In this document: piece after piece, positions 1 to 61,602 of the stretch
Position numbering within the stretch: the first letter of the stretch is position 1
How the letters are laid out: each line of letters starts with the position of its first letter
Assembly: GCA_004524535.1 (NCBI GenBank)
Contig: SDNY01000003.1
Location: forward strand, 7,138-71,137
Reading direction: 5' to 3'
Length of the DNA: 64,000 bases
Source of the DNA: Promethearchaeota archaeon
Lineage (GTDB): Archaea; Asgardarchaeota; Lokiarchaeia; Sigyniarchaeales; SOKP01
The notes under the pieces: generated by a model
The model's database searches: none
What the model was told of the DNA's origin: nothing
What the model saw: only the letters and a program-made list of their open reading frames with translations
Translations under genes and position numbers: made by a program

Positions 1-197
1 TGCTGTTCAGCTATTATTAATTTATTATCTTGACCCAAATCGATGTATTTTATCACACTCCGTAAGGCCTCTCTGCTAAAATTTGCGATTGAGGCAAAAA
101 ACCCAATCATTATATTATCTTCAAAGTCTTCTTTCGTGTAATTCTTTGAATATATCAACAACCCATTTTGTTTCATAATGTAAAAACTTTTTATCAT
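1..197 (-). CDS. Longin-like domain protein, runs off the window edge
   Basis: Hand translation from ATG 197: MIKSFYIMKQNGLLIYSKNYTKEDFEDNIMIGFFASIANFSREALRSVIKYIDLGQDNKLII. Fits the longin N-terminal pattern (hydrophobic strand, G, LLIYSK strand, then GFF-SI-NF helix). Not in the ORF track. Confidence 0.6.
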   Translation of the reverse strand, partial: MIKSFYIMKQNGLLIYSKNYTKEDFEDNIMIGFFASIANFSREALRSVIKYIDLGQDNKLIIAEQ

Positions 198-221: not shown

Positions 222-1976
222 TTAAGTTAAATTAAAAAATTCTAAATATTCATGCATCGATGCTTTATATTTTTTATAATTATAAATATACGGGCCGACA
301 ATCTCCATTAATTTAATTATCAATTGATCTGGATTTTTTCTTGAAAAGATTTTGTATTTTTCGTTAACACGTTCTGTAATAAAGGTTGCTGATTTAATTT
401 CTAGCATTTTTTTCAATGCGTCAATATCAGGATTATTTAATTCAATCGTGATTATTTCACCAAAATGTGGAATTTTCGAAATAAAATCATTGACAGTACC
501 AAGTTCAGCAGTTTTTCCAGAAACCATAAGGATTTTATCGCAGTTTGAAACAATATTTTTACGACCATGAATTATTAAGATAACATGAAATTTCTTTTTT
601 ATTTTATTCATAAAATCGTTAAAATTTTCACCTTGAATCCGTTCTAACTCGCCTGGAGGTACAGAGAACATAATTATATCAGGTGATTTTAGAAGTTCTC
701 TTGAGATTGATAATAATAAACGATCTATATTAGAAAGTGTAGAAACTTTTTCTTTTTTTCTGTTTAATAATCCTGTTACTTCTAAGGCGGAATTTATAAA
801 GCTCTTTTTAGTCTTGTATTTTGGAGGCAACGATATAATTTCGTCAATTTTACTAAAAATTCCAGCAAATTTTGCTTTAGTGCTTAAAGCTCTCTTTCTG
901 ATTTTCCATTTTGGTTTTATTTTAATATTATAATGTACTGCTTTCTTAATAGACATGTTTAATATTCTCTCATCAAGTAAATGCGAAGTTATAACAATTT
1001 TTTTCAACTCATCATTTGTAGCTAACTGTATATGTCTTCCGAATAATTTGATGGTTCCTGAATCTATTAATTGAGAACCCGCTATTATATTAAACAATTT
1101 TACTATTTGTGTATTTGATCTGAATTCTCTTGATGATTCTAAATTGTAAAGGATTCCAATTGATTGCCCTCTATGAATATTAAACGTTATATCTTTAATA
1201 TCCTCTCCAGAAGATATATTATTAACTACGAGATGCTGTGTTCCCCCTTTTAAGTTAAATAATGATTTAATTATTTGAAAGATATGAGGGGGGTTCTCAG
1301 CATCCCAACTTTTAATTACATCTGTATTTATAGAAATATTTTCCATGAAAGCTGTTACTCTTTTTACTTTTTGCCTTAATGTGCCTTTAAATTTCTCTCT
1401 TAATATCTCTTTGAAGCGTTCTATATAGGTTTTTATATATTTTTCAATTATAATTTGATTTTTTTCCATTAATTTTGGTTCAAGAGGGTATTTTTCTAAA
1501 TTAATCTTGAATTTAATAATTAGATCAGGAAGATAAATTCTTATCTTTCTGAAGTAAGGATTCCCAACAACGGGACTATTTTCAAAATGCTCATCAATTA
1601 ATTGGATTTCATTATCCAATATAGCTAAATGAGATTCTAATTCTTTTTTAATCAGCTTATTAACTCTTTCTATTATTTTTTTAGGGCTAACAAGTCCATC
1701 TTTATCAATATCTGGCTCAACTATAATTTCAATAAAATCAAATTCAGTCTCTGTAGGGGTATATATTTTTATGAGGGGAACACCGCGTTTTATTACATCC
1801 TCATTGGTGAAAAATAAGATTTCAATATATAATCTTTTATAAATTAAATCTAAAATAGTGGCAATTCCAAACGTTCTTTCTCGGTAAATCATCCAATACT
1901 TTTCCGAAAATCGAATTGCATCAACAATTTTTAATCTTAAAACCTCTAATTGAGGTACTTTAATAATAGAACTCAT
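222..1976 (-). CDS. Degenerate ABC ATPase domain fused to an unknown ~250 aa N-terminal domain
   Basis: ABC-like context ITFNIHRGQSIGIL but no Walker A GKT/S. Signature is LSNIDR instead of LSGGQ and Walker B is IIMFSVP instead of hhhhDEP; H-loop IIHG retained. ATGA overlap with the upstream gene. Confidence 0.75.
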   Translation of the reverse strand: MSSIIKVPQLEVLRLKIVDAIRFSEKYWMIYRERTFGIATILDLIYKRLYIEILFFTNEDVIKRGVPLIKIYTPTETEFDFIEIIVEPDIDKDGLVSPKKIIERVNKLIKKELESHLAILDNEIQLIDEHFENSPVVGNPYFRKIRIYLPDLIIKFKINLEKYPLEPKLMEKNQIIIEKYIKTYIERFKEILREKFKGTLRQKVKRVTAFMENISINTDVIKSWDAENPPHIFQIIKSLFNLKGGTQHLVVNNISSGEDIKDITFNIHRGQSIGILYNLESSREFRSNTQIVKLFNIIAGSQLIDSGTIKLFGRHIQLATNDELKKIVITSHLLDERILNMSIKKAVHYNIKIKPKWKIRKRALSTKAKFAGIFSKIDEIISLPPKYKTKKSFINSALEVTGLLNRKKEKVSTLSNIDRLLLSISRELLKSPDIIMFSVPPGELERIQGENFNDFMNKIKKKFHVILIIHGRKNIVSNCDKILMVSGKTAELGTVNDFISKIPHFGEIITIELNNPDIDALKKMLEIKSATFITERVNEKYKIFSRKNPDQLIIKLMEIVGPYIYNYKKYKASMHEYLEFFNLT

Positions 1977-4900
1977 TCTAATTTTGGGACCTCCATAGCT
2001 TTATATCTAAAATATTGTTCAATCTTTGTATCATTCTGCTTTATATCTTTAATCGAATCAAAACCAAAATTTAATTTAATTTTTTCTTCTAACGAGCTTA
2101 TATTCAAATCGGAAAGTATAGAAAAATCAGTTCCCGCTTTATTTTCAAGAGCTTTATCAATGCCTTCAATGGATTCGAGCCTTTCAATCGCATTTTCATT
2201 TACACCATTAAAATATAAGTCGACAGTTCTTCCTTTACCTGGTAATTGAGCTAATAAATCTTTAGGACGGCCATAATCTATCATCCCTCTCATTCTCCCA
2301 AAAATGGCAACGCGGTGGCAAAATTGAGATTCTTCAGGATAATGAGTTACCACTATTAAAGTTGAATTAAATTGTTCATTGATTTTAGTCAGTGCTAACC
2401 AAAGATTTTCCCTCACCACTGGATCCAATCCACTAGTAGGTTCATCCATCCAAATAATAATAGGATCATGAATTAATGCCATAGCAATGGATACACGCCT
2501 CTTTTGACCCCCAGATAAATTTTTAACCTTTTCATGCATTTTATCTTCAATTTCTAAAGCAGTTAATATCCGCTTTGCTTTTTGCATGACCAATTTCTCT
2601 GTCATATCATATTGCTTTCCGAAATACATTATATTTTGCAAAGTCGTGAAATTTTGGTAAATTTTATCGAGATCTTGAGGGACATAACCATAAATTGGTC
2701 GCATCTTCTTATGTTTCTTCTTGACATTCATGCCATAAATCTGAATTTTTCCTTTATATTTTCGCATTCCTAAAAGGGATTTTACAAATGTTGACTTACC
2801 AGCACCACTCTCTCCTAATACTCCTAAAATTTCTCCATGCTTTAATTTCATCGACACAGACTTAACTATTAACTTTCTCCCAGCAAAAATATTTACATTC
2901 TCGCATAAAATGGCTGGAAACTTTTCCAAATATGATATATTATATTTTTCACCGACTCCAAATCTTTCTTTCAATTTTTTGGAAACTGTTACATTTAATA
3001 TGGAAATGATCTTGATAATGCCAAATAAAAGTAGTATTAACATTTCTATAATAAATATTGATGTAATTAAATCATTCCAAGGTTTTGGGTTAAAACTTTG
3101 GTCATAACTTAATTCTTCAATGAGCATTATACCATATGGTGTATTTCTTAAATCTCCACCAAACATAGGAAAGTCTCCAACTCCTCCTGTGTTAGAACTG
3201 AGACAATCTTCGTACCAATCAATTAAATCTTCAATATTTTCTGGTTGAAAATCATATTCGTATAGTCCCATTGCTGCGAAATATGATACGAAAAATGTCG
3301 ATGGAAACTCAAAAAGATCTGAGATTACAGGGATCGGAGCAAAGCTTCCATCTTCATCTTGGGCTTTTTTCAAAAATTCTATTGCCGCAATTGTTGACAT
3401 AGGGTCTATCTCTAAAATTTTTAAAGTTTTTAATCCAAAATAAGTTGAAATAGTGTCGCTATGAAACCCTAAAACTATTGGAAAACCCCCATCAGCGCTT
3501 TGGGCTGCTGAAATCCAATGAATTAAATTATCCTCATCAAGCTTATCCAAAGCTTCTAAAATCTTTAGTGATGCTACGGCCCAATATGTACTTTCCATAG
3601 TCGGCGTATCTGTTTCAATTAGATCAGTAAACATTTGACTTAATGGTCCAAAAATGGACATAAGTTCATTTATATCAACCCCTAATTCAAATCCTCCATC
3701 ATCATCTTGAAGATCAACTAAATAATCAATTGTATCTTTTCTATCAGGAAGAGAAATATCTGAATAAGTAAGTAATATTTCATAAAGATTAATTGCATGA
3801 TAAGTTGCTAATAAACTTGTACTTCCACTAGGTTGAGAGCTAAATCCTCCATCTCCTTTATTATAACAATCTTCCACATAATCCCACATATTATCTATAT
3901 CAACATAATCAGTAAAATTATCAGGCTCGACGAGATATATCGATAATGCTCCTAAATAATTCGCTTCAAGTGAAGTATGCCCAAATAATCCGTTCTTTGC
4001 TTGATGAGTGTATAACCAGCTATAATAATTTTGAATATAGGTTTCGATATCCACCCCTGGCAAATTAACCTTATCTCTGAGTAAATCTATTGACTTCATG
4101 GCAGCCCATCCAGATATAAAATCTGAACTACTATTCAAATAAGCATCTGATCCAAAACCTCCATCTAACTTCCCACAATTAAGGATAAACTGAAGTGTTT
4201 CATTAGCTTTATCCGGTATAATATTTAAAGTATACATTGATGATAATGCATAAAAAGTAGATTGAACGTTGGATATTCCAACGCTAGAATATCCACCATC
4301 GATGTTTCTAAGACTCTTGAGATAATTTTCAATAGTTTTATTTTGAAATTGATTGAATTTTTGACCTAATTCTAAATAAGCTTTAATTCTATAATACAAT
4401 TGCTCAACAGATTCATCATCCCAATTACTTAGTTCTACATAATTAGTAATATTTGGATTACTAAGAATAGATTTGGCGTTAAATATATTAGCCATATGAA
4501 TTGCACAATATGTAGATCTAATATCGGGCAAAGGTGCGTATTCATTATATTTAAAACCCCATCCATCCTCTAAAAGACAATTTTGGATATAAGTTAAAAT
4601 TTTCCCGATTTCATCGGATTTTGAATATAAATAAGTAGGATTTAATAAATCTATAATCTCTATTACCTCATAAGTTGAAAACATGTTGCCTAAACCACCA
4701 ATATCAGAAAACGAACCATTATTGTTCTGTTTTTCAAATAAATAATCAAAAAAGAACTCATCATAATCCCTTATATAACTAATTGACCTAGGAAAAATTA
4801 AATCAGTTAAATATGGATAAACATGAGAAAAATCAATTGAATCAATTGCACGGAAGTTTGCATCGATTTCAGGTTCAATAAAAAGATCAGAATCAGAATT

Positions 4901-5071
4901 TTTGTGTGAATATGAAAACTCCATCATATCTTCTTTCAAATCTTGAAGTTCATCATCATCATAATATTTTATCCAAGGATAATTTATGACAGCTAAAATC
5001 GTAAGCTGCAAAGTGAACAATGCTGATAAAAATAATAAAATTTTTAATTTTCGTTTTGTTTTATCTTCTAT
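1973..5071 (-). CDS. Prenyltransferase/squalene-oxidase-repeat ectodomain + TM helix + ABC ATPase fusion (about 1032 aa)
   Basis: Repeats of Q/N-x-x-DGGF type (QNNNGSF, NIDGGYS, KLDGGFG, QAKNGLF, GDGGFS, QDDDGGF, QSADGGF, QDEDGSF). TM LITSIFIIEMLILLLFGII. ATPase motifs GESGAGKST, LSGGQKRR, WMDEPTSG, VTH. The frame extends 17 codons upstream of the TTG at 5020 to ATA 5071, adding the basic n-region IEDKTKRKLK before a hydrophobic segment. Confidence 0.85.
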   Translation of the reverse strand: MEDKTKRKLKILLFLSALFTLQLTILAVINYPWIKYYDDDELQDLKEDMMEFSYSHKNSDSDLFIEPEIDANFRAIDSIDFSHVYPYLTDLIFPRSISYIRDYDEFFFDYLFEKQNNNGSFSDIGGLGNMFSTYEVIEIIDLLNPTYLYSKSDEIGKILTYIQNCLLEDGWGFKYNEYAPLPDIRSTYCAIHMANIFNAKSILSNPNITNYVELSNWDDESVEQLYYRIKAYLELGQKFNQFQNKTIENYLKSLRNIDGGYSSVGISNVQSTFYALSSMYTLNIIPDKANETLQFILNCGKLDGGFGSDAYLNSSSDFISGWAAMKSIDLLRDKVNLPGVDIETYIQNYYSWLYTHQAKNGLFGHTSLEANYLGALSIYLVEPDNFTDYVDIDNMWDYVEDCYNKGDGGFSSQPSGSTSLLATYHAINLYEILLTYSDISLPDRKDTIDYLVDLQDDDGGFELGVDINELMSIFGPLSQMFTDLIETDTPTMESTYWAVASLKILEALDKLDEDNLIHWISAAQSADGGFPIVLGFHSDTISTYFGLKTLKILEIDPMSTIAAIEFLKKAQDEDGSFAPIPVISDLFEFPSTFFVSYFAAMGLYEYDFQPENIEDLIDWYEDCLSSNTGGVGDFPMFGGDLRNTPYGIMLIEELSYDQSFNPKPWNDLITSIFIIEMLILLLFGIIKIISILNVTVSKKLKERFGVGEKYNISYLEKFPAILCENVNIFAGRKLIVKSVSMKLKHGEILGVLGESGAGKSTFVKSLLGMRKYKGKIQIYGMNVKKKHKKMRPIYGYVPQDLDKIYQNFTTLQNIMYFGKQYDMTEKLVMQKAKRILTALEIEDKMHEKVKNLSGGQKRRVSIAMALIHDPIIIWMDEPTSGLDPVVRENLWLALTKINEQFNSTLIVVTHYPEESQFCHRVAIFGRMRGMIDYGRPKDLLAQLPGKGRTVDLYFNGVNENAIERLESIEGIDKALENKAGTDFSILSDLNISSLEEKIKLNFGFDSIKDIKQNDTKIEQYFRYKAMEVPKLE

Positions 5072-6133
5072 TACGCCTCACCTTCCATTATTTGTTCGCT
5101 TTCTCTTAATTTCCTTTCTTTCTCCTGTTCTTCTTGGATTCTAATCTGGAAATACCTTCTAAAAGTAGCATTATCCTTACTCATGGAAGTAACTTTTAAA
5201 TTGTTTTTTATCGTATATTCAATTAATTTCTGAAGGTTTTCTTCAAAATCCTCAATAAACACTTCAATTATTTCATTTCCGACACGTATTGTTTTTTGGA
5301 CGGGTGTAAAATTTTTAATAATTTTAATTTTATTCTCAGTAAGATCCTCAATAGTTAATCTAGTTAATAAGCCACCACTCGGGAGTGATGCTATGAGATT
5401 ATCATTAGAATCGAATTCTAATAATTTTCCATCTCTTAAAATCGCGCTTTTATCACATATTAAGGCTGCCTCCATATCGTGTGTGATAAGAAACATTGTC
5501 GTTCCTAATTTTCGATTTAACTTTTTTAAATATGAGAGAACTTCATATCTTTTTGCTGCGTCTACACCTTTTACCTCCAACTGCGTCTTACGCTAGTATG
5601 GATGTGGTAGGCTCGTCAAGAAAAAGAATTTTAGGCTGATGGATTAAACCAATAGCCACTGAAACTCTCTTTTTTTCTCCTCCGCTTAATTTTTTTAATC
5701 GTTTTTTCCAAGTATCTTCCGGAATGTCAAGTATCGAAAATAGTTCTTTTGCTATTTCTTTCGCATTTTTTTTTTTCAATCCATAGGTCGATGCAAATGT
5801 TTCTACATTCGCCATAGGAGACAACTCATAGTAAAGATTGAGACCTTCAAGTTGAGGAACATATCCAATATTGCTTAAGATTTTTGGATGATTTCTACTT
5901 TGTGCGGGATTTAAATCGGTGACTTTTACATTCCCATTCCAGTTCTTTTTATTGAGCTGGCACGTAAGTACTCGTATAATAGTTGTTTTGCCAGCACCAC
6001 TGATACCAAATAAACCGATTATTTCTCCGGATTTCACTTGAAAAGATACATCATGAACGACCTGTTTGTCTCCGAATTTAACATTTAAATTTTCGACATT
6101 TACCATTACATCCGTTATGTTTTCTGACTTCAA
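5071..6133 (-). CDS. ABC-2/DrrA-type ATPase with intron; exons 6133-5604 and 5569-5071, 342 aa spliced
   Basis: The ORF track shows two halves: GISGAGKTT, LSGGEKKR, LFLDEPTT, then GVDAAKRYEV...ITHD. Removing 34 nt joins DEPTT-GVD in frame (530+499=1029 nt). Confidence 0.9.
5570..5603 (-). other. Putative 34-nt bulge-helix-bulge (BHB) intron in a protein-coding gene
   Basis: Minus strand: GCC TACC AC^A TCCA-TACTAGCGTAAGACGCAGT-TGGA GGTA AA^A GGT. Central 4-bp helix TACC/GGTA, 3-nt bulges ACA and AAA, inner helix TCCA/TGGA, outer helix GCC/GGU. Contains an in-frame TAA. Confidence 0.85.
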
Positions 6134-6187: not shown

Positions 6188-7420
6188 TTATACCTCATAT
6201 CTTTTTCTTTTAATTACCAAAAATGAAAGTACTATAAACGCAAGACTTAAAATAAGTAAAGCAAAAAAGTCGAAGCAAAAGACTGATTTCCCTTTTGATA
6301 GGATTCCATTTATCATTGGTTTTCCATGAGATAATGGTAAGATAAACGCTACTATTTGTAAATATTCAGGCATGGATTCTATAGGAACAAAAATTCCACT
6401 TAAAAGGGCAATTACGATAAAGGCCGCGAAGAATAGTTGATTGGCTTCTGTCTTTGTTTTACTTACTGTACTGATAAACATTCCTAAAGAGACGCCCGTA
6501 AAGCCTAAAATGAATAAGGCCAAAAATATATCAAATAACGAGCCGGCCACATAGAGACCATTAAGAAGTGAAGTTGAAAGAATTATAAATACTTGGAGCG
6601 CTAAGATAATAGAATATGTAATATATTTGGACAAGAGAATTTCATGTTTTTTAGCAGGGGTTAGTAAAAGACGAGCGATAGGTTTTTCTTGTACGACTAC
6701 TAAAATAGTAAGTACAGTGCTAATTCCGAAAATCATAAATGAAAATAATATAATCATGCTATAATTGAACCTGAAATTATAATCAGATGGTACTGAATAC
6801 TCTTCGTATTCCATAAGGACGAATTGAGGGTCTAAATTGTTATCTTCTACAAAAAGATCAATTGAATCCTCAACGGCATTAAGTTTTTCTTGGATATAGA
6901 ATATTTCTGAGCTATCTGGTATACATTCGATTATCCCAGGTAAATCTGTAGATAAAAACTCTGAGAACTCTACAGGAATCTCAATAATAATTCCAATTTT
7001 ACTATCACGTAAATCATCTCTTGCCTTTTCCATAGCATATTTTTCTTCACTTGCATCGTAGAAATCAACAAGGTCCAAATATTTAGATTTTTCGACAGCG
7101 TCTAAATATTTTTCAGTAAAATTATCCCAAAAAGTTGTAATTGTATAGTTATCTTGATTGACATATAATTCGGAATCATAGCTAACAACAGTACATTTAA
7201 CTGGAATAATTTCTGAGGCACCAGCAGAAGACATGGAAGCAAACATCCATATTATTAGTGGTGGTAATGCAAGGGCAATAAAGAGATTGATTTTATCGGT
7301 TTTTAAAAGCTGGAATTCTTTTTTTATCTGTTTTGCCAATCGAAATAATCGAATTTTTAATTTTAAAAAACCACCGGTATACGTGTCATTGCTACTCATT
7401 TGATTATTCTTGTCATCCAA
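6188..7420 (-). CDS. ABC-2 type transporter permease
   Basis: KEFQLLKTDK N-terminus, one TM, a large acidic extracellular loop, then five TMs. RLLLTPAKKHEILLSK, SGIFVPIESMP and LPLSH are typical of YhhJ/YbhS-like permeases. Confidence 0.9.
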   Translation of the reverse strand: MDDKNNQMSSNDTYTGGFLKLKIRLFRLAKQIKKEFQLLKTDKINLFIALALPPLIIWMFASMSSAGASEIIPVKCTVVSYDSELYVNQDNYTITTFWDNFTEKYLDAVEKSKYLDLVDFYDASEEKYAMEKARDDLRDSKIGIIIEIPVEFSEFLSTDLPGIIECIPDSSEIFYIQEKLNAVEDSIDLFVEDNNLDPQFVLMEYEEYSVPSDYNFRFNYSMIILFSFMIFGISTVLTILVVVQEKPIARLLLTPAKKHEILLSKYITYSIILALQVFIILSTSLLNGLYVAGSLFDIFLALFILGFTGVSLGMFISTVSKTKTEANQLFFAAFIVIALLSGIFVPIESMPEYLQIVAFILPLSHGKPMINGILSKGKSVFCFDFFALLILSLAFIVLSFLVIKRKRYEV

Positions 7421-7426
7421 TATTTA

Positions 7427-8593
7427 TCAGACCTCCACCTTTTTAAATCTATAAGCAATATATGCTCCTATTATGAAAACCAAAGAAATCAAATTTAAAC
7501 TAAGAAAGTGGAATAAATCAATAGGTAAGCCTTTTTTAGTAATTTCATTTATTAATGGAACAGCATGACTTAATGGCAACGCGTTGATTATGAATTGCAT
7601 TGCAACCGGTAATGTATCCATTCTTATGAATGAGCCTGAAAACATCAATAAAGCGATAAAAAGCATTATATAGAGTTGGTTTGCTTGTTGTTCCGTCTTA
7701 CTTATTGAGGAAATGAATAAACCTATACAAATCCCACAAAAACCTATTGCAATTAAAATCAGATAGAGACTAAACAAGGATCCTAAAGAAAACATCCCAA
7801 ATATCGCTGATAGAGCAAATATAATTGTTACCTGGAATAACATTATTATTGAATTTGCTATCAGTTTACTTAAGATTATTTCTTTTTTAGCGGTCGGTGT
7901 GAGTTGTAAGCGGGGGAGCGGTCCTTCAGACACAATTGATAAGGAAGTAAGATTCATTAACAATCCTAGAATAAGCATTGATAAAACTATGGATAGAGCA
8001 TAGTTCAAAACTTGAGTCTCCCAATACGGCACCTCATATTCAAGGTAAGGAAACATTGTTACGAAATTAACCGTTTTCCGTATCCTAATTTTAAACAAAC
8101 CAATTGGTTCCTGAATCGCCACATCAACTGCATCAACCGCCTCTAAATCTGATCCATCGATGTAATAAGTAAGAGTTGTATCAGTTTCGTTCTCTATTGT
8201 TTCAGAGAAATCTTCCTCCAAAATAATAAATACATCTATGATTTCATTCCTTAGGAGCTCAAAGCACTCTTCAAATGCATCATCATATTCTTCCTCATTA
8301 TCACATGAATATGAATCAATAAGGCCCCATGCTGAACAATCATCCTCCACAACATCAATAAATATATCGTCATAATTAAGGGTAGAATTTGATTCAAGAG
8401 GGAATTCAGGAGTTTCGTATGGTATATTATCACGGGAAATAATTGCTGCGTTATAGAATTCAGTGGGGCCTCCTCCACTAGTTAGACCGAATATCACGAT
8501 TAATATGACTGGGATTGTAAATATTAAAATTAAAGTTCTTTTATCTGCTTTAATTCTACTAAATTCTTTCCTTATTAAACCGCTTAAATACAT
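7427..8593 (-). CDS. ABC-2 type transporter permease
   Basis: IRKEFSRIKADKR, RLQLTPTAKKEIILSK, FSGSFIRMDTLP, LPLSH; paralog of the adjacent permease. Confidence 0.9.
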   Translation of the reverse strand: MYLSGLIRKEFSRIKADKRTLILIFTIPVILIVIFGLTSGGGPTEFYNAAIISRDNIPYETPEFPLESNSTLNYDDIFIDVVEDDCSAWGLIDSYSCDNEEEYDDAFEECFELLRNEIIDVFIILEEDFSETIENETDTTLTYYIDGSDLEAVDAVDVAIQEPIGLFKIRIRKTVNFVTMFPYLEYEVPYWETQVLNYALSIVLSMLILGLLMNLTSLSIVSEGPLPRLQLTPTAKKEIILSKLIANSIIMLFQVTIIFALSAIFGMFSLGSLFSLYLILIAIGFCGICIGLFISSISKTEQQANQLYIMLFIALLMFSGSFIRMDTLPVAMQFIINALPLSHAVPLINEITKKGLPIDLFHFLSLNLISLVFIIGAYIAYRFKKVEV

Positions 8594-8734
8594 AAATAAT
8601 GCTATTAATTGTAAATATTCCGCATTGTAAACTCTTATTTTGTATTATAATACAACAATTCATATTAATTTTTTAAAGTCTTTCTAGATCTGAGTTATAA
8701 AGAAAAAAAATTTTGTCAAAAGCTTCACATACTT

Positions 8735-9496
8735 TTATTTCTTCTTCATGAAAAGCTTTTTCATCCATTCGGGTAACATAAAGCTTCCATAAAAAAAAAT
8801 CGCAGAAAATAATAAAAAGATTCTTGCTAAGATTCTTATAGATATAGCGCCTTCATAAATTGGTTCTAATGTATTGTAAACTATAGTATCAATTGTCATT
8901 CCAATTATGAAAAGAAGCATTCCTAATAATAACAAGTTACCTTTTAATCTGAGTTCATATTCATTCGATTTACGTAAATCTAAAAACACAATTGTACATC
9001 CTATAATTAACATGATTATACCTAAGAATAAATAAATTAGGAGAAAGATACCAAATTTTATGGTTATCTCGCTAGTATAATCCCCGATCAATATGCGATT
9101 ATAGGGTGAAAAAAGAAAGATAAAGAAGAGAGGTTCCATAATTGCGGTGTATATTAATTCGAAAGTTAATATAATTTTTTTTTTTTCCTTGTATAATAAA
9201 TCTGTAAGTAATGTAAAAAGCCCCCACATACTAATGGGAATAAAAGCATAACCAACAATGAAATAAACTTCATAAGGAATCCCAGAATTGGTAAAAAGAT
9301 ACCAAAAAAAGGCCAATTCCACGGCCCAATAAGCTTCAAAAAGGAAAAAAAGTCCTATTCCCGTAGTAAGGATTGTCCGATTTTTATATTGAACATATTT
9401 TTTGATTAATATAATAAATATAACAGTTAAAAAAATTAATAAAATTAAAGTTATAATACCATTAATAAACACAGCAGGGGCCATACTAGCTAACAA
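8735..9496 (-). CDS. Seven-TM membrane protein of unknown function
   Basis: Seven hydrophobic segments, ends LPEWMKKLF, no soluble output domain. Confidence 0.65.
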   Translation of the reverse strand: MLASMAPAVFINGIITLILLIFLTVIFIILIKKYVQYKNRTILTTGIGLFFLFEAYWAVELAFFWYLFTNSGIPYEVYFIVGYAFIPISMWGLFTLLTDLLYKEKKKIILTFELIYTAIMEPLFFIFLFSPYNRILIGDYTSEITIKFGIFLLIYLFLGIIMLIIGCTIVFLDLRKSNEYELRLKGNLLLLGMLLFIIGMTIDTIVYNTLEPIYEGAISIRILARIFLLFSAIFFYGSFMLPEWMKKLFMKKK

Positions 9497-9686
9497 TCCA
9501 TCTCATCTCTTTATTATTTCTATATTCAGAATCTAAAAACATATATCTTAGTAAGTAATTCATATGTATATTAATTATATAAATTAATCATTTCTGACTA
9601 TGAGTCTTCTGAGGAAAATTATAAGAGTTTTATTGATATAATAGGAGTTATAAAAATAATATGTAATTATAATAAATGTGCTATTC

Positions 9687-10547
9687 TTACATGAATCCAA
9701 AAAAATCGGCGGTTGCGGAAGGTCTCTTTAACTCTGCATTAAAATAAGTTTCCGCAATTTCTATTATGAATTGTAAATAATCGCTCGGCAATTTCACTTT
9801 ATATATGGAAAAAAAGTGATCAAAAATCTTTTTTGTGATGAAATCTTGGTTTTCCTCGAGCGAGTCGTTGAACTCAATGATTTGTTCAGCTAACTTATAA
9901 ACTTTTTGAATTTCATTTTTTATAATAATTAGACTTGTATATGGATCAATCTCTGAGTAAAATTTCTGTGCAATAGTACTTTCTATTTTTAATTTTCTCT
10001 GATTAATGAATTTGGTTTTATCTTGAATGATTTTGAGTCCTTCAACTACAATATAATCTTTATATTTTTTTTTGTCGTTTTTATAATCGGCACGCTTAAT
10101 AATCAAGAGTTCCGTATTAAACGTATCTCCAATAATGTATCCAAAAAATTTTTTAAATTGGCCATTAAGGAACTCTTGATCTGAGAGTAATACTATGTTT
10201 TTATTAAAGATAATACAAGAAATAATTTTGATCATTAGCGAGGGAACAATATTAAGCTTGATTATGTCTAAATCTAAATCTTTATCAATTTCTTCGTCTA
10301 TTTTTACTTCTTTAAAACCAATTTCAGGTATTTGAACTTTAAAATCGCATATAAAGCAATCTCTTACATCGAGATTTTTATCAATATACGCAACAAAAGA
10401 ATGTTCGCATACTAAATCTTGCGAAACATTAATGGCTGAGACGCCTCGTTTACTTTCCAAAATAAAATTCTTTTCTACCCAAATCTCACCCTTCTTGGAG
10501 CAGACAGGACATCTGATTTCAACTTTTACTTCTAATTTGGAGGACAT
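9687..10547 (-). CDS. CPxC...CxH Zn-binding domain protein with a possible DENN-like C-terminal domain
   Basis: RCPVCSKK...LVCEHSFVAYIDKNLDVR, followed by IISCIIFNKNIVLLSD, which resembles the cDENN core strand. Confidence 0.55.
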   Translation of the reverse strand: MSSKLEVKVEIRCPVCSKKGEIWVEKNFILESKRGVSAINVSQDLVCEHSFVAYIDKNLDVRDCFICDFKVQIPEIGFKEVKIDEEIDKDLDLDIIKLNIVPSLMIKIISCIIFNKNIVLLSDQEFLNGQFKKFFGYIIGDTFNTELLIIKRADYKNDKKKYKDYIVVEGLKIIQDKTKFINQRKLKIESTIAQKFYSEIDPYTSLIIIKNEIQKVYKLAEQIIEFNDSLEENQDFITKKIFDHFFSIYKVKLPSDYLQFIIEIAETYFNAELKRPSATADFFGFM

Positions 10548-10806
10548 TTTTACAAATTATAATAATTATATCATTAAAAATTGATATGCAATATCTGATT
10601 CTCTTGTTCAATCTTTACTAATTATACAAAAATATACCTATAAATATTCATCACTAAAGACTAATATATAGTTATCTGTCATTGATGATTTATTACTATT
10701 AATATAGAAGTGTAATTTAGGATTTAAATATTAAAGTTTTTGATTAGGAATAGATGTTTCTGGGATGACCACAGCCAGGATATTTCCAATCAGCGGCATT
10801 TTTTTT

Positions 10807-12790: not shown

Positions 12791-13411
12791 TTATGCGGAA
12801 TAAATTTCTCGTAATTTTTTATCTTTTTCTATTTTATCTATGAAAAATTTAATTTGTTCATTAACGTTATCAATTTGCGCCTTCCAACCTTTTTCTGTTA
12901 ACAAACTTCGCATATTCAAATATATTCTAATTACTTTTTCGTATGGAGGATCTAGCTTAAAATTTCCTTTCTTAGTCTCAGATTCATATTCTCTTACCAT
13001 TTTATCAGCATACTCCTCCATATCAACAATTTGCTGTTTAAAATCCTTCTCTTTTTCAGACTCCTCTATTTTCCTTGCTCTTTCACTTTCTATTCTTTCT
13101 TTTTCTTCTTTAGCTTGTTTTTCTTCTAAGATTGCCTGTTCTGCTTTTAATTTGCGTTGTTTTTCATCACGAGCTTTTTGTTTCTCTAAAGCTTGATTAT
13201 GATGTATTCGTTCTATTTCCAACTGATCTATTGTTTTTTGGATTGTTTGAATTTGGTCTACCCAATTAATTTCTCTTAGTAATTCTACTGCTTGATTATA
13301 TAATCTTAATGCCTCATCGTATTCCTTTACTTTTGCTAATTCAGTACCTTTTCCCATAAATTCGAAGGCTTGATTTAAAATATCACCTTCGCTATTTTTT
13401 CTATTATCCAT
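12791..13411 (-). CDS. Helical repeat (MIT/TPR-like) and coiled-coil protein
   Basis: Two related units (YDEALRLYNQAVELLREINW..QI and YEKVIRIYLNMRSLLTEKGW..QI) separated by an E/K/Q-rich coiled coil. Confidence 0.6.
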   Translation of the reverse strand: MDNRKNSEGDILNQAFEFMGKGTELAKVKEYDEALRLYNQAVELLREINWVDQIQTIQKTIDQLEIERIHHNQALEKQKARDEKQRKLKAEQAILEEKQAKEEKERIESERARKIEESEKEKDFKQQIVDMEEYADKMVREYESETKKGNFKLDPPYEKVIRIYLNMRSLLTEKGWKAQIDNVNEQIKFFIDKIEKDKKLREIYSA

Positions 13412-16907: not shown

Positions 16908-19178
<2,271 letters not shown>

Positions 19179-19399: not shown

Positions 19400-20182
19400 T
19401 TATAATCTTTTATATCTCTGGCTTGCAATATATGCCGCACCCAACGCACCCACAATTTGAGGATCTAAAGACATTTTTAAAAACCTTTCTCCAAGCATTT
19501 CTTCTAAATAGCGCACTACACCTATATTCTTCGCAACGCCACCAGATATTGCAATATCTTTCTTAACTTTTATACGTTTTGTCATAGAAAATACTCGTTC
19601 CGCCATAGCTTTATTAATTCCAGCAGCAATATTTGCCTTTTTGAAGCCTGAACTAATATATTGTAGCACTTCTGCCTGAGCATATATACTACATGTGCTT
19701 TTTAGATTTATTGGTGCCTTGCTTTTTAAAGAAATTGTACCTAATTCTGTTAACGAGAGATGTAATAAATCTGCCATTATTTCAAGATATCTGCCTGTGC
19801 CCGCTGAACACTTCTCATTCATTCCAAAATCAATCAGCTTTCCAGTACGATCAATTGAGATAACCTTACAATCTTGACCTCCTATATCAATAATAGTACG
19901 AACACTTGGAAGTAAAAAATGTGCCCCAATCCCATGACAAGTAATTTCGGTAACACTCTTATTGGAAAATGGGATATTATCTCTCCCATAGCCTGTGCTA
20001 ACAATAAAATTTACATCCTCCTTATTTATATTTGTTTCGGACAACACTATTTCAAAAACACTTTCAGCTGTCTCTATCGGAGTTTTTTTTACTCGAATTA
20101 CCTTAAATCCTACTATTTCATTATCCTTCAATAATAAAGCTTTTCCAGTTAAGGATCCAATATCTATTCCAGCAAAGACCAT
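19400..20182 (-). CDS. Acyl-CoA dehydratase activase / BCR-type ATPase subunit
   Basis: GIDIGS, STGYGR, IDIGGQD, KCSAGTG, TCSIYAQAE, GGVAKN (ASKHA fold with two Fe-S Cys). Confidence 0.92.
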   Translation of the reverse strand: MVFAGIDIGSLTGKALLLKDNEIVGFKVIRVKKTPIETAESVFEIVLSETNINKEDVNFIVSTGYGRDNIPFSNKSVTEITCHGIGAHFLLPSVRTIIDIGGQDCKVISIDRTGKLIDFGMNEKCSAGTGRYLEIMADLLHLSLTELGTISLKSKAPINLKSTCSIYAQAEVLQYISSGFKKANIAAGINKAMAERVFSMTKRIKVKKDIAISGGVAKNIGVVRYLEEMLGERFLKMSLDPQIVGALGAAYIASQRYKRL

Positions 20183-20249
20183 TTTTATATACCCATATTT
20201 TGTAGTTAAAAAAATATTTTTTCATAACTAAATTGAAAATCCAATTAAT

Positions 20250-21047
20250 TCATCCACCTCTTTCTTTTGCTGCAATTGCTGCTCCATAAGCAGTTATATA
20301 TTCAGGGTCAAGAGGTAATTTTATTAACTCAAAATTCAGTCTCTCTTCGAGGTTTTGAACTATTTTTTGGTTCTTAGCCACACCACCCGTAAAGGCAACA
20401 TTCTTAAACTCCTTATCAATCATCTTGATTAAAGGATAAGCCCTCGCTGCCACAGAATTACATACCCCTGCCACTAAATCAGGCAGATACGCCCCTTCAT
20501 TTTTATATGAAATAACTTCTGACTCCGCAAAAATACTACATTGACTGGATATTGAAATTGGATTTTTCGCTTTTAAAGCTACATCTGCTAGCTCAGAAAC
20601 GTCCAATTCTAATCCTTCGCCTACTAATTCTAATAATATCCCCGATCCAGCGGCACATTTATTATTCATCATAAAATCTACTATTTTTCCATTTTCATCC
20701 ATTTTTAATGCTTTCATGCTAAAGCTACCTATATCCACAGCGACTCTTACCTGAGGATTTAGACTATAAACGCCTTTCCCTATACATGTAATTTCAGATT
20801 CTTTTTCTTTTATGGAAATTTTATCAGAATTCAAACCAGTAGCTAATGCGGTTTTTTTTAATAATTTCAGTTTAATCTTTAACTTTTTAGATAATTCTTT
20901 CAAACATAGATTAATGGCTTTTTCTGGATTACCCAAAACTAATATTTTAGTTTTTCCCAATATTTTCTCTCCATTAGAATCTACTATAACAACTTTACAA
21001 ACTGTAGATCCGACATCTATCCCAACAAAATAGTTTTTATTAACCAA
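20250..21047 (-). CDS. Acyl-CoA dehydratase activase / BCR-type ATPase subunit, second paralog
   Basis: GIDVGST, KCAAGSG, QCSIFAESE, GGVAKN. Confidence 0.92.
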   Translation of the reverse strand: MVNKNYFVGIDVGSTVCKVVIVDSNGEKILGKTKILVLGNPEKAINLCLKELSKKLKIKLKLLKKTALATGLNSDKISIKEKESEITCIGKGVYSLNPQVRVAVDIGSFSMKALKMDENGKIVDFMMNNKCAAGSGILLELVGEGLELDVSELADVALKAKNPISISSQCSIFAESEVISYKNEGAYLPDLVAGVCNSVAARAYPLIKMIDKEFKNVAFTGGVAKNQKIVQNLEERLNFELIKLPLDPEYITAYGAAIAAKERGG

Positions 21048-21127
21048 TTCTTATTTCAGTCAATAGTTTTTAATTGTAATTCTAATCTTAAAAATAAAAT
21101 GAAGTGAAATAAATAATATTTATTAAA

Positions 21128-22411
21128 TTACATTAGAGTTTTCACAAAATTGCTAATTTCCTTCTTAATTGTTTGAATTGACATATATCTTGCATCTCCT
21201 ATATCCAAATCAATACTTAACAAAGGTATACCGAGCTCATCTCTTAGAGCTTCTCTTAATAATTGAATAACGCTAACACTTTGTTTGCATCCGATATGAG
21301 CCGTAAAAATTGCACAATCAGCTTTATATTCCTTTGAAAGGAAAACAAAATCATCAAGTAAATCATCAGAAAAAGTCGCACTCTGACGTACCATAGGATA
21401 ATTCATAGATTGCTTAGCTAATCCTTGGAATATTTTATCTACTCCTTTAGATGTATCGACTGGATCAAAAAAAAGATAATTAAAAATATCAAATAACATT
21501 GTCATGCCCAATTGACGATCCAACCACTCACAAAAGCCAATATCAAAAAATATGGACATATATGGCCATACTGTACGTATCTTTTCTTCTCCTTCATGTG
21601 CGCGTTCACCATTTTTTACTCTTTTTTTGGCAATTTCTAACACTTCCTTAAAGAATAAAACACGCTCTACTTGCCCAGGAATAAATGCCAAAACAGCAGT
21701 CATTAATGGACATAGCATTGATTCGATAGGATTTGGAACTGCCTTTTTTAATTCGTTTATTTCGGTAATATATTTCAAAGCCTCATTATTCAAATCAACA
21801 GCTTTACGTAATTTCTCATAATCTGGTTCTTGACCTATTTTTTTTCCAATTTCCTCAATTGTTATTTTTAATTCTTTTCCATAATACTTATAGCTTCTAT
21901 CATCACGATAATAAGGCATATCAGCTAAAATGAAGGGGATGTCTTTATTATAAAATTCTTTTATAATAGGATAACTCGCAACTGTATTATCACATGGACT
22001 CGTTGGACTACTAATGATATCAAAATGAAATAAACCATCCATTGTCATACCCATTGTACCCTTCTGAGAGGTGCATGTATGATATGGATGACCAAAGCTA
22101 TCAGCAATATCATAAAAGCTTTCTGCCCCTTCTGGTAATAAAGCCGAAAGAATATAAGGAATACCCTCAACAACTACAGGTACAAATTCGAAACAATGAA
22201 ATATTTCTGTAGGAAACGCAAAATGATGTGCTATTATTGGATAACCTTGTTCTGCATCGTCAATATATTTTTTTACTGCTGTTGTTATATGTTTTAAAAA
22301 AGATTTTAAGACAAGTAACTCTCCACTTGCCATTCCACCCTCAACAAGTTCTTTTGTTGTACAGAGTGCCTCATACAACATTTCATATGGGATAATTTTA
22401 TTAGTCGGCAT
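21128..22411 (-). CDS. 2-hydroxyacyl-CoA dehydratase / benzoyl-CoA reductase family subunit
   Basis: HTCTSQKG, SPCDN, HIGCKQ, IPLLSIDLDIGD. ATG start 9 nt inside the track ORF. Confidence 0.88.
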   Translation of the reverse strand: MPTNKIIPYEMLYEALCTTKELVEGGMASGELLVLKSFLKHITTAVKKYIDDAEQGYPIIAHHFAFPTEIFHCFEFVPVVVEGIPYILSALLPEGAESFYDIADSFGHPYHTCTSQKGTMGMTMDGLFHFDIISSPTSPCDNTVASYPIIKEFYNKDIPFILADMPYYRDDRSYKYYGKELKITIEEIGKKIGQEPDYEKLRKAVDLNNEALKYITEINELKKAVPNPIESMLCPLMTAVLAFIPGQVERVLFFKEVLEIAKKRVKNGERAHEGEEKIRTVWPYMSIFFDIGFCEWLDRQLGMTMLFDIFNYLFFDPVDTSKGVDKIFQGLAKQSMNYPMVRQSATFSDDLLDDFVFLSKEYKADCAIFTAHIGCKQSVSVIQLLREALRDELGIPLLSIDLDIGDARYMSIQTIKKEISNFVKTLM

Positions 22412-22430
22412 AAAAATCACATTCTTTAAA

Positions 22431-23570
22431 TTATTCTATTTGTTCAATAAACGCTTCACATCGCGTTTTAAAACGCCCTTTATCTCCTAAAAAGTAATCT
22501 CTATCTAAGGATAACATAGGCACATTAATTTTTTCAAGTTCATGCTCATACATCATACATTCGCATCCATTAAGGTCACAAAACTCAATTCGAGTTCCAA
22601 TAACACCGTCTATTTTACTTACTTTTATCTGTTCTTGTAAAAATTTATACCTTCTATCATGGTCATCCATCATTCGAGGGCAGGAAAGTTTATAATAATA
22701 TTTCTTTGTTATAGCATCAAGAGGATTCCCAGTTTCTTCGGTTAAATCCCAAAAATTTCTTAGTCCAAAACATAATAGATCCGAAACCACCAGTCCTCCA
22801 ACATCTTCAATTATTTTAATAAATTCCGGATCATCTATTATACTTCCTGTTAGTAAAATCCTCGCACGATAATCTGAGATACCATCCTTGTTTTTTAATT
22901 GAGCTAAATATGATTTTAACTCCTGATTAACAATCTCCTTTGGAATTGAACTATAAGCAATGTTAATTTTTACAAAATCTTCACCATTTAATTTTGGCTT
23001 TTCTAAGGCTCGTAATTGTTGGATTTCCTTTAAAATTCTTCTCCCTTCGTTTAAAACCTTAATAGAATTGTTTAAATCTTCATTTGTTATCTTTATTTTA
23101 AAATATTTTTCTAAATCTGATTTAAAAAATTCAAATTCCTCCTTTAACCAAGAAAAACCACGGTCTGTTAGAATATGTGGCACAGATAAAAAATATAATG
23201 GAAAATTATTGTCAATACCATCAATTTGGCCGATAATTTTGTGCTTCCATATATCGAACATTCTCCGAGCGTGGTCACAACTGTTCATACATATTAACCC
23301 GTCAAGAAAATTATACTTTCCTTCCATAGCTAAATCTAAAGTTGCTCTAACAAATGAACAATTAAATTTTGATAAAATTGTATCAGCACGCGAAGTCCCT
23401 TCTGCTTCTGTCCCCCTCATTCTATAACCCATTAATCCTCCCGCATGAATAATTTCTTCAGGCACGTATGTACAATAATAACCTAAAATCTTTTTATTCT
23501 GTTTTTTCCATTCCTCTATATATGGATTGGAAAGGGTTTCTGTACTTTTAAATAAATTTTCAATCGTCAT
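22431..23570 (-). CDS. 2-hydroxyacyl-CoA dehydratase / benzoyl-CoA reductase family subunit (HgdB/BcrC/BzdN-like)
   Basis: GYYCTYVPEEII, CSFVR, NSCDHARR, LSCPRM, EFCDLNG, RFKTRCEAFIE. ATG at 23570. Confidence 0.9.
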   Translation of the reverse strand: MTIENLFKSTETLSNPYIEEWKKQNKKILGYYCTYVPEEIIHAGGLMGYRMRGTEAEGTSRADTILSKFNCSFVRATLDLAMEGKYNFLDGLICMNSCDHARRMFDIWKHKIIGQIDGIDNNFPLYFLSVPHILTDRGFSWLKEEFEFFKSDLEKYFKIKITNEDLNNSIKVLNEGRRILKEIQQLRALEKPKLNGEDFVKINIAYSSIPKEIVNQELKSYLAQLKNKDGISDYRARILLTGSIIDDPEFIKIIEDVGGLVVSDLLCFGLRNFWDLTEETGNPLDAITKKYYYKLSCPRMMDDHDRRYKFLQEQIKVSKIDGVIGTRIEFCDLNGCECMMYEHELEKINVPMLSLDRDYFLGDKGRFKTRCEAFIEQIE

Positions 23571-23571
23571 T

Positions 23572-24036
23572 TTATTCCTTTTTGAAACTTGGATGAGTTC
23601 CAATTGAGAGTAATTTAATTATCTTAATTGCGGCTCCTAAAGAACCCTTGATTTTAATCTTATGTTTAAGCACATGTCCAAATATCACTTTCATTAATCC
23701 AGAAAGATTATTTTTCATTCTCATCATTTTAATAATGTCAGGAATTAGGTTTTCTTTCTCTGAAGTTAAAATAACAGTTGCAACTGAGTTGTCAGAGGGC
23801 CCCATATGAGGAATAAGACGACTCTTTGAAAGAGTTAAAGTTATATATGTATCAAGAGCTTCAAAATATAATTCTACTTCTTGACCTTCTCTTTTTCCCA
23901 CTTTATCTAATGATTTAATATCTAAACCAAAAATATCTACACTCATTTGAAAAAGTCTTCCTATAGTAGCTGCTATTGTCTGATTTCTTAATTTTTGTGC
24001 TCGTTCTGCTCGTGTCAATTTTAAAATGTTAATCAA
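23572..24036 (-). CDS. SCP2-like lipid-binding domain protein
   Basis: Ends KHKIKIKGSLGAAIKIIKLL, the SCP2 pattern (l.i.G....a..l); first gene of the dehydratase cluster. Confidence 0.55.
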   Translation of the reverse strand: MINILKLTRAERAQKLRNQTIAATIGRLFQMSVDIFGLDIKSLDKVGKREGQEVELYFEALDTYITLTLSKSRLIPHMGPSDNSVATVILTSEKENLIPDIIKMMRMKNNLSGLMKVIFGHVLKHKIKIKGSLGAAIKIIKLLSIGTHPSFKKE

Positions 24037-45358: not shown

Positions 45359-45943
45359 TTACTCTAACTGAATTGAAAGTAAACGTTTAAGTGTAGAATT
45401 AAGCCCTATTTCCTCAATCTTACTTGATATTAATGCCAAATTTACTTTTTCTCTATTTGCATGAAAAATGGTTAAAAAATCGATAATATCTTGATATTCC
45501 AGTAATTCTGAATCTGGTATATCGTCTATTTTTCCCATATATATAATTTTTCCTATTAATACATATTCTATTGGCGCAATACTTAACTCTAGACCGAGAA
45601 TTTTTTCATTTATTGCATTTTTTAATACATCAAGTTCTCTTTTTTTATCAGCAACTTTAATATCAAGTCTTAAGAAACTCTCATTATCAAAAATAGATAT
45701 ATTAGTATGTTCTTGATAGGCCATTTTAATTTGTTCCTCCATTACATCAAAATTAAAGGATCTTAGTAACCCTAAGAATTGAGAGAACTTTGAGGGATCA
45801 TCTTCAATAATTATATCTATATCTTGTGTAGCTCTTATATGACCATAATGGATTACGGCTATGCCTCCTACAATGACATACTTTAATTTAGTTGCCTTAA
45901 ATATCTTTTCTAAACGGGATAAGATATTTTTAATTTCAGCCAA
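45359..45943 (-). CDS. DUF6036-like nucleotidyltransferase, probable toxin
   Basis: YVIVGGIAVIHYG..RATQDIDII, KR..D. Confidence 0.8.
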   Translation of the reverse strand: MAEIKNILSRLEKIFKATKLKYVIVGGIAVIHYGHIRATQDIDIIIEDDPSKFSQFLGLLRSFNFDVMEEQIKMAYQEHTNISIFDNESFLRLDIKVADKKRELDVLKNAINEKILGLELSIAPIEYVLIGKIIYMGKIDDIPDSELLEYQDIIDFLTIFHANREKVNLALISSKIEEIGLNSTLKRLLSIQLE

Positions 45944-46226
45944 GGTCCTTACCTCGTTTTTGAAGTATTTGTATTTTTCTTGCTAAAGATAATAAATCTC
46001 GTACTTTTTGATGTATATTTGATTCTGATAGTTCCGGATAATTACGTGAGATTCCATCTTTCATAATTTCAAATGTATCGGTTATGAATTTATCTGCGAT
46101 CTCAAGAGGCTCAATTTTTTTTTTTATTATTCTGATTGCTGATTGAATTTCATCCTGTAATTTTTTTTTTCTAATGAATAAGAGATCATTTCGTTGTAGT
46201 AATTCTGTTTCTTCCGTTTTATCCAT
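45936..46226 (-). CDS. Small helical partner of the nucleotidyltransferase, probable antitoxin
   Basis: 96 aa, overlaps the start of the NTase gene; role inferred from arrangement. Confidence 0.55.
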   Translation of the reverse strand: MDKTEETELLQRNDLLFIRKKKLQDEIQSAIRIIKKKIEPLEIADKFITDTFEIMKDGISRNYPELSESNIHQKVRDLLSLARKIQILQKRGKDLG

Positions 46227-61456: not shown

Positions 61457-61512
61457 CCAATCAAATTTTCTAATATAAGAATGACATCTTATTCTTATAT
61501 CTTTTTCTATTT

Positions 61513-61602
61513 TTTTAATTCCAAGAAATTTTTTAGAATTTGCATCCCATAGGGTTTCATTTTTATCGACTCGGGATGGAATTGGAGCTCTTCGACTGGA
61601 AT
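61513..61602 (-). repeat. trpG/pabA 3'-end relic, longest copy
   Basis: IPVEELQFHPESIKMKPYGMQILKNFLEL, 29 uninterrupted codons; stop changed to AAA. Confidence 0.93.

Follow-up and report, generated by a model that had tools for sequence, protein, structure and literature searches.

The window analysed here, a 64,000-nucleotide (nt) stretch of an archaeal contig (SDNY01000003.1, positions 7,138 to 71,137, from the Promethearchaeota assembly GCA_004524535.1), carries on its minus strand a gene for an ABC-2-type transporter ATPase, and the coding sequence of this gene is interrupted by 34 nt that, judged from the sequence, are very probably a rare protein-gene intron. Exon 1 (5604..6133, minus), as delimited by alignment with orthologs, starts with TTG at 6133, with an alternative ATG at 6106, and holds the Walker A motif, the signature LSGGEKKR and the Walker B motif ILFLDEPT. 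Its 3′ end reads ...GAC GAG CCT ACC AC at 5604, with AC being the first two bases of the second Thr codon. The insert (ATCCATACTAGCGTAAGACGCAGTTGGAGGTAAA; 5570..5603, minus), a predicted bulge-helix-bulge (BHB) intron with predicted cuts at 5604|5603 and 5570|5569, separates DEPTT from GVDAAK. Exon 2 (5071..5569, minus) opens A GGT GTA GAC at 5569, the A supplying the third base of the split Thr codon, and continues with the D-loop GVDAAK, the H-loop ITHD, the C-terminal domain and the stop. The insert shifts the frame (34 mod 3 = 1) and contains an in-frame TAA at 5590..5588, five codons in. The genomic sequence is thus read as two open reading frames (ORFs), one of 181 amino acids (aa; 5588..6133, minus) that extends from Walker A to Walker B and terminates in ...ILFLDEPTTSILA, and a second in a different frame (5071..5580, minus) that carries ...GVDAAKRYEVL..ITHD....

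Removal of 5570..5603 in silico joins the exons as ACC AC|A GGT and yields a 342-aa protein with a full ABC_tran domain (Pfam E = 3e-26). The predicted spliced junction is CCTACCACAGGTGTAGAC, at which the exon ends CCTACCAC|AGGTGTAGAC meet. Across this junction the stretch DEPTTGVDAAKR of the spliced protein matches DEPTSGMDAISR of human ABCA3 residue by residue with zero gaps, and other solved ATPases are likewise gapless there. An earlier note on this DNA had described a 34-nt insert that is not a multiple of three and contains a TAA, and had proposed that cutting after the second base of each of two bulges would give T-T-G and a complete 342-aa ATPase; the former is read directly in the minus strand, and the deletion and the Pfam match confirm the latter. 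Gene callers systematically hide this intron: public annotation (NCBI nr, P0127 and P0131) lists the two halves in the window as separate proteins of 181 and 169 aa, and annotation of other assemblies has fragments of 172 and 141 aa.

The uninterrupted state is common among the relatives of this gene. More than 100 full-length Asgard orthologs are uninterrupted, and named orthologs of the ATPase come from Promethearchaeota/Lokiarchaeota and from Thor-, Hermod- and Hodarchaeota. The closest of the insert-free orthologs, L001 (93% nucleotide identity) and the syntenic gene of Promethearchaeota archaeon LW60_4 (L005, 95%), lack precisely this insert, as do three others at 76–82% identity (L002–L004). 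The earlier note had suggested aligning orthologs for presence or absence of the insert, and the close ones thus bear out its extent; the junction so obtained is set by the alignment, independently of any structure.

The insert is also present in four other contigs, whose overall identity to the window is 93–96%. Scanning metagenomes with a 23-nt core of the insert recovered two Joint Genome Institute (JGI) contigs, L046 (95.6% identical) and L047 (93.3%), which carry it unchanged. A protein-cluster look-up of the two fragments encoded in the window led to two contigs of metagenome-assembled genomes (MAGs) at NCBI, L307 (GCA_019058335.1) and L308 (GCA_019058415.1), in which the insert has one A-to-G change at window position 5582; this turns a U-A pair of the hairpin into U-G and is the sole variant seen in the window-type insert. 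The exact 34-mer was not found in the GTDB representative genomes. For the five copies the synonymous tree length of 0.28 predicts 9.5 neutral changes per 34 nt, against the one observed (P = 8e-4). The ratio of non-synonymous to synonymous differences (pN/pS) among the intron-bearing copies is 0.12–0.21 over the whole gene (binomial test against neutrality, 3e-9 for the longest whole-gene pair) and 0.20–0.36 in exon 2 alone (binomial p = 1e-3, 3e-4 and 0.02), and in the region common to the window and L307 there are 12 synonymous and no non-synonymous differences. After splicing in silico none of the five copies has a stop or a frameshift. Both exons are therefore under purifying selection, which argues that translation of each half proceeds in the frame in which splicing would place it.

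The RNA of the interrupted gene (minus strand throughout) can fold into a BHB around the two junctions, and the helices, bulges and hairpin described in the earlier note are each found at their positions. The outer helix pairs GCC of exon 1 (5610..5612, the last base of the Glu codon and CC of the Pro codon) with GGU (5566..5568, the Gly codon of exon 2), and the central 4-base-pair (bp) helix pairs UACC of exon 1 (5606..5609) with GGUA of the intron (5572..5575). The bulges on either side of it are ACA (5603..5605) and AAA (5569..5571), each with the predicted cut after its second base, and the remainder (5576..5602) forms an inner helix of UCCA/UGGA, ACU/AGU and GCGU/ACGC closed by a loop AAG. 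The arrangement GCC-UACC-ACA-UCCA ... UGGA-GGUA-AAA-GGU corresponds to the hBHBh′ type, with two 3-nt bulges on opposite strands, a 4-bp helix between them and flanking helices. In RNAfold predictions with flanks of 0–60 nt the BHB either is the minimum free energy (MFE) structure or lies within 0.3 kcal/mol of it.

Chance expectations differ greatly with what is asked of the motif. A bare BHB with helices of 3, 4 and 3 bp (G-U allowed, inserts of 12–120 nt) has 625 matches on the plus strand and about 1,250 on both strands of this window of 30% G+C, and because such matches are common in so AT-rich a sequence and the folding z-score given below is weak, the motif by itself proves little. When random or shuffled 34-nt inserts were placed between the real exons (2 million trials of each), a strict BHB that cuts at the ortholog junction arose in 2.9e-4 and 3.1e-4 of them, respectively.

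The same site is occupied in other Asgard lineages. We searched the GTDB representative genomes with a gapped pattern (GAYGARCCNACNAC, 15–45 nt, GGNGTNGAYGC) and made a second search with a peptide composed of the exon 1 end and the residues read through into the intron. At least ten further Asgard contigs have inserts of 31–34 nt at the identical point, between the second and third bases of the second Thr codon in DEPTT, and the count of intron-bearing genomes is a lower bound. They are Promethearchaeota bin106 (L050, 33 nt), Promethearchaeia BLK6-3.bin.141 (L144, 32 nt), Loki_b31 (L057, 31 nt), YT_039 (L146, 31 nt), MFD12951 bin5 (L156, 31 nt), a MAG labelled Hodarchaeota, DZ1B.201 (L271, 31 nt), three ENA assembly contigs (L305, 31 nt; L306, 32 nt; L302, 32 nt), and the NCBI marine sediment metagenome contig BART01011085.1 (L303, 34 nt). 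A match in Enterococcus (L147) was rejected as an insert carrier and is a chance match. Removal of each of the ten inserts leaves an intact ABC ATPase frame, giving proteins of 334–349 aa at the five loci where the whole gene is available, and every insert brings a stop into the exon 1 frame within seven codons. The interiors of the inserts fall into several types. Those of L057, L146, L156 and L271 form a 31-nt type with 81–97% mutual identity, to which L305 also belongs; those of L050 and L144 are 53–76% identical to this type; and that of L306 has a 9-bp hairpin of its own. The window-type insert is only 32–38% identical to the six inserts with which it was compared, and the L302 insert appears to be a diverged relative of it.

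All of these inserts form the BHB fold. The 5′ bulge is ACA at all 12 homologous sites, and the 3′ bulges are AAA, UAA, UUA, UGA, AAU, UAG or ACA. The central helix occurs as UACC/GGUA, GACU/AGUU, AACU/AGUU and AACU/GGUU, and the outer helix as GCC/GGU, ACC/GGU and GCC/GGC; the outer helix covaries by way of synonymous changes at third positions in the Glu and Gly codons. In an alignment of 12 sequences that was anchored at the splice sites only, these being defined by the coding alignment and not by structure (as in an earlier version with eight sequences), 116 of 120 pair cells are paired, and six of the ten pairs have changed on both sides. This gives a covariation score of 0.650, compared with 0.244 +/- 0.043 in shuffles (0 of 500 reach it, a count that is not to be taken as a probability) and with a maximum of 0.19 when the 3′ partners are displaced by 1–3 columns. 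A plain MAFFT alignment of the complete inserts misplaces their 3′ sides, and for this reason RNAalifold predicted no structure from it. The earlier note had also raised the question of covariation in orthologs; distant orthologs carry different inserts in which the pairing is conserved and covaries.

The explanation that we favor, at a probability of roughly 0.85, is that the 34 nt at 5570..5603 constitute a putative BHB intron, spliced by EndA and RtcB, in the coding sequence of the transporter ATPase. As far as the sequence goes, this predicted intron displays every feature by which BHB introns are recognized. The sequence evidence comprises the motif, the restoration of the ortholog junction, the presence in several assemblies, selection on both the exons and the intron, and repeated occupancy of the site with compensatory pairing. 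In the pre-mRNA, GCC-UACC of exon 1 would pair with GGUA at the 3′ end of the intron and with GGU, the first Gly codon of exon 2, leaving the bulges ACA and AAA on opposite strands, four bp apart, with the intron hairpin behind them. EndA, the tRNA-splicing endonuclease, would cut after the second base of each bulge, leaving 2′,3′-cyclic phosphate and 5′-OH ends, and RtcB would join the exons to ...ACC AC|A GGT..., encoding DEPTT-GVD and hence the contiguous Walker B and D-loop of the 342-aa ATPase; the 34-nt intron would be released, probably as a circle, and unspliced mRNA would yield the 181-aa fragment only. EndA cleavage, RtcB ligation, circularization and any regulatory use are all steps that we infer. 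The enzymology expected of the host is compatible with such a scheme, as Asgard archaea are reported to have a heterotetrameric, (alpha-beta)2 EndA with an L1 loop that confers broad specificity (PMC5829648), mRNA introns have been linked to the broad-specificity type of EndA (PMC2738675), and tRNA-intron loads are very high in some Asgard lineages (PMC11291895). The reading of the earlier note, that an ABC ATPase mRNA contains a BHB intron, is thus supported by the ortholog junction, by the contigs from other assemblies and by covariation; its further suggestion, that such splicing would govern expression of the exporter, is speculative.

Several points weigh against this interpretation. First, the splicing is a prediction made from DNA sequence. 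Secondly, the folding energies are equivocal, with a competing register that has a 3-bp central and a 4-bp outer helix at −14.6 kcal/mol against −14.3 for the BHB, and an MFE z-score for the 76-nt region of −0.79, which is not significant, so that we do not use folding energy as evidence. Thirdly, three of the homologous sites are relaxed: L144 (271..330) has a C.A mismatch and L303 (about 100..165) a C.U mismatch in the central helix, and L302 (about 1790..1845) has an outer helix of 2 bp, all of which fits a broad-specificity endonuclease. Fourthly, the covariation rests on about four to six independent intron lineages, which is why the shuffle count is not a probability, although the controls with displaced partners and the two-sided changes of the central helix, as read from these alignments, are clear despite the small number of lineages. 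Genes for EndA and RtcB were not found within the window, and the exact spliced proteins of six intron-bearing genes were not present in a collection of 15 billion proteins, an absence that bears neither way. Finally, the coupling of transcription and translation in archaea means that efficient splicing within a coding region needs explaining, and the introns of cbf5, discussed below, pose the same puzzle.

Among the competing explanations, the one that survives best, while still improbable, holds that EndA cleaves the transcript and that the exons are not efficiently rejoined, the element acting as an off-switch or as the source of a small (circular) RNA. The 31-nt inserts are 81–97% identical in genes whose exons are only 67–75% identical, which exceeds the needs of a passive intron and would suit such a role. 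However, exon 2 is under purifying selection and in most lineages has no separate start codon, which means that its translation has to be part of a joined message, and RtcB ligation normally follows EndA cleavage in archaeal tRNA splicing.

Ribosomal recoding has a smaller chance of being correct, whether as a +1 or −1 frameshift, as stop read-through, or as bypassing of the kind known from T4 gene 60 and the mitochondrial byp elements. A +1 shift at GCG-UAA-G would suffice to bring the two frames of the window together and there is a hairpin nearby, and the cbf5 introns were themselves once mistaken for frameshift sites (PMC2738675). The homologs, however, share neither a slippery heptamer nor a constant frame offset; with lengths of 31, 32, 33 and 34 nt the inserts cover all three classes modulo 3, so no single recoding rule fits, and in L146 and L156 a stop codon stands directly before exon 2 in the exon 2 frame. 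Bypassing is disfavored by the lack of any match between the take-off codon ACA and the landing codons AAA, UUA, UAA, UGA and AAU. With read-through or frameshifting the protein would gain about 11 residues at the junction of Walker B and D-loop, a point at which no extra residues occur in solved ATPases, and all of these models leave the covarying helices that involve exon bases unexplained.

No better placed is a truly split gene, in which an N-terminal half (to Walker B) and a C-terminal half (from the D-loop) are translated apart and then assemble. Selection does act on exon 2, and in the window a TTG within the insert opens the downstream frame (MEVKGVDAAK...) with an overlapping GGAGG. 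This GGAGG overlaps and follows the TTG, though, and does not precede it, and in the six other inserts examined (L050, L144, L057, L146, L156 and L271) the exon 2 frame contains no ATG, GTG or TTG ahead of the junction; the split-gene model fails because among these inserts a start for the second half, the TTG, exists in the window type alone. The break would moreover fall within the core of the nucleotide-binding fold, and the BHB geometry and its covariation would be left without a reason. The least probable account is an inactivating lesion, either a pseudogene or an artefact of assembly or sequencing: the insert does break the frame and add a stop, NCBI has the halves as separate proteins and the closest relatives hold an intact gene, but the same insert is found in five contigs of separate assemblies, it is conserved beyond neutral expectation, pN/pS is 0.12–0.36 in both halves with no additional stops or frameshifts, ten contigs of diverged Asgard lineages retain intact exons along with a structured insert at this position, and translation of both halves in the frames expected from splicing excludes artefact and pseudogene alike.

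The closest parallels to the putative spliced intron are the introns of cbf5, the pseudouridine synthase gene, in Crenarchaeota, which are 16–44 bp long, break up a catalytic motif and have been both gained and lost (PMC2738675). In both cases a short BHB or relaxed-BHB insert, too short to encode anything, lies within a coding sequence and interrupts a catalytic motif, is patchy among close relatives, belongs to a lineage with a hetero-oligomeric, broad-specificity EndA, and has been missed by annotation. They differ in that the gene here encodes an ABC ATPase and the hosts are Promethearchaeia and a MAG labelled Hodarchaeota rather than Desulfurococcales and Sulfolobales, that the introns are unrelated in sequence, with several unrelated interiors at one site here, and that splicing of cbf5 was shown experimentally whereas that of the Asgard intron is predicted. 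With an ABC_tran ATPase as host gene and a Promethearchaeota host, the element is of the same kind as the cbf5 intron and not a homolog of it. Reports on the cbf5 intron include Watanabe 2002 and Yokobori 2009 (PMC2738675).

Other systems share some of these features. The BHB introns of archaeal tRNAs and rRNAs have the same hBHBh′ geometry, cut position, size range and presumed use of EndA and RtcB; the host here is an mRNA, however, whose Glu-Pro-Thr-Thr and Gly codons supply the exon strands of the helices, and the same bases are thus under both structural and coding constraint. In Haloferax volcanii a 46-nt BHB intron in the 5′ untranslated region (UTR) of HVO_1309 was demonstrated by circular RNA sequencing (circRNA-seq) and in vitro cleavage, and a regulatory role was suggested (PMC7714728). 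It too is short and lies in an mRNA that is a substrate of the splicing endonuclease, but it is euryarchaeal and sits in an untranslated leader, so its splicing is not needed to make the protein. The HAC1/XBP1 introns (IRE1 with Trl1 or RtcB) resemble the Asgard element as short, frame-changing introns in coding mRNA that are defined by structure and are removed by protein catalysis without a spliceosome, a tRNA ligase joining the exons; there, though, IRE1 takes the place of the tRNA-splicing endonuclease and cuts twin stem-loops instead of a BHB, and stress regulation is established there, whereas regulation in the Asgard case is purely speculative. Bypass elements (T4 gene 60 and the byps of Magnusiomyces mitochondria) are likewise structured coding inserts of 27–55 nt that are absent from the protein, but they need matching take-off and landing codons and the ribosome skips them, whereas the Asgard codons mismatch and the BHB is formed partly from exon bases.

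As of 2020 the mRNA BHB introns counted were those of cbf5 and a single 5′ UTR case (PMC7714728); the earlier note was right to name cbf5 as the precedent for mRNA, which is not quite the sole one given the demonstrated HVO_1309 case. No report of BHB introns in Asgard protein-coding genes came up in our full-text searches. The intron described here would be a second, putative, coding-sequence case, in a gene unrelated to cbf5. It is backed by many alleles, several intron types and compensatory changes, and no comparative support of this form has ever been at hand for cbf5. In Asgard archaea, which are the closest lineage to eukaryotes, mRNA is very probably a substrate of the tRNA-splicing machinery. 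Since annotation turns such introns into two 'fragment' proteins, more are probably hidden in existing genomes, and the present element is a concrete and easily assayed substrate.

In a neighbor-joining tree of 133 orthologs the intron-bearing genes occur in at least five places, and each has closer uninterrupted relatives at 88–96% amino acid identity. Within the species-level cluster of the window, intron-bearing and intron-less alleles are interleaved in a tree of synonymous distances. As far as can be read from these sequences, the pattern is one of gain and loss, like that of cbf5 (PMC2738675), in which nearly identical populations gain, lose or exchange mRNA BHB introns. Exons of the hosts of the 31-nt type are 67–75% identical in nucleotide sequence, with synonymous sites saturated (pS 0.68–0.80), yet the introns are 81–97% identical. 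Strong constraint, lateral spread by recombination and site-specific insertion are the candidate causes of this better conservation of the intron than of its host gene. The core of the type-A intron was not found in IMG/VR, nor in other genes of the examined loci.

The presence of several unrelated BHB mini-introns at one site of one ABC-2 ATPase family could reflect either site-specific intron mobility or a function of the excised RNA or of regulated splicing, a suggestion that we consider tentative and more likely wrong than right. Spread by reverse splicing, intron transposition or recombination would fit the first option; reverse splicing and intron transposition have reportedly been proposed for the tRNA introns of Thermoproteales. 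An excised small or circular RNA, or regulated splicing that gates assembly of the transporter, would fit the second, and if true would be an archaeal equivalent of HAC1/XBP1, in the prokaryotes most closely related to eukaryotes. An origin of the insert by local duplication was considered and rejected, as the 8-mer AGACGCAG common to the intron and exon 2 is not significant (p = 0.06–0.14).

The earlier note had proposed a scan for BHBs between frameshifted ORF halves. In the window such a motif has thousands of weak matches; those that join two open frames are mostly gene junctions with a ribosome binding site and ATG, and a second convincing intron was not found in the window or in 11 Asgard loci. 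Adjacent ORF pairs at 45359..46226, 22431..24036, 60924..61606 and others were rejected as split genes, since their halves do not belong to one family. Searches for tRNA genes and Rfam families in the window gave none, and 15 Asgard loci likewise have no tRNA genes. In a separate contig (L304, 1380..1400, from Logan SRR25145046) we note a eukaryote-looking ABCG-type fragment in which DEPTT is followed by GTAAGT, a spliceosomal-type 5′ splice site at the same phase-2 position as the Asgard BHB intron; this is probably a coincidence, since fragments cut off at DEPTT are what the search favors.

The window is about 95% identical in nucleotide sequence to, and syntenic with, Promethearchaeota archaeon LW60_4 and encodes TBP, which bears out the Asgard host that the earlier note had thought probable. 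The ATPase is the third gene of an apparent operon (all minus strand), preceded by two ABC-2 permease genes (7427..8593 and 6188..7420) and followed by a gene for a 1015-aa fusion protein (1973..5020) that combines prenyltransferase-like alpha-alpha toroid repeats with a second ABC ATPase domain (DEPTSGLD), this one uninterrupted; the gene order is also seen in L002, L302 and L307. Adjoining the operon is a strain-specific indel of about 2 kb (8678..10737) that is absent from the syntenic LW60_4 contig and holds two minus-strand ORFs (8735..9496 and 9687..10547), neither with a Pfam match.

Four further minus-strand features of the window deserve mention. A KatG-type catalase-peroxidase (16908..19124; Pfam peroxidase E = 2e-69) lies in the sole block of 39% G+C in a window of about 30% G+C and may have been acquired horizontally. 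At 19400..23603 two BcrAD/BadFG-type activator ATPases and two HGD-D (2-hydroxyacyl-CoA dehydratase) subunits are clustered, the upstream end of the cluster being overlapped by 32 nt by a 154-aa ORF without a family match. At 60924..61606 a ParE-type toxin (97 aa) overlaps by 4 nt with the 'addiction module' antitoxin (130 aa) upstream of it, the two making up a type II toxin-antitoxin pair. Finally, a 206-aa protein (12791..13411) has a weak N-terminal match to the MIT domain, at 25 bits against a cut-off of 30 bits, which if real would represent an ESCRT-related, eukaryote-like domain.

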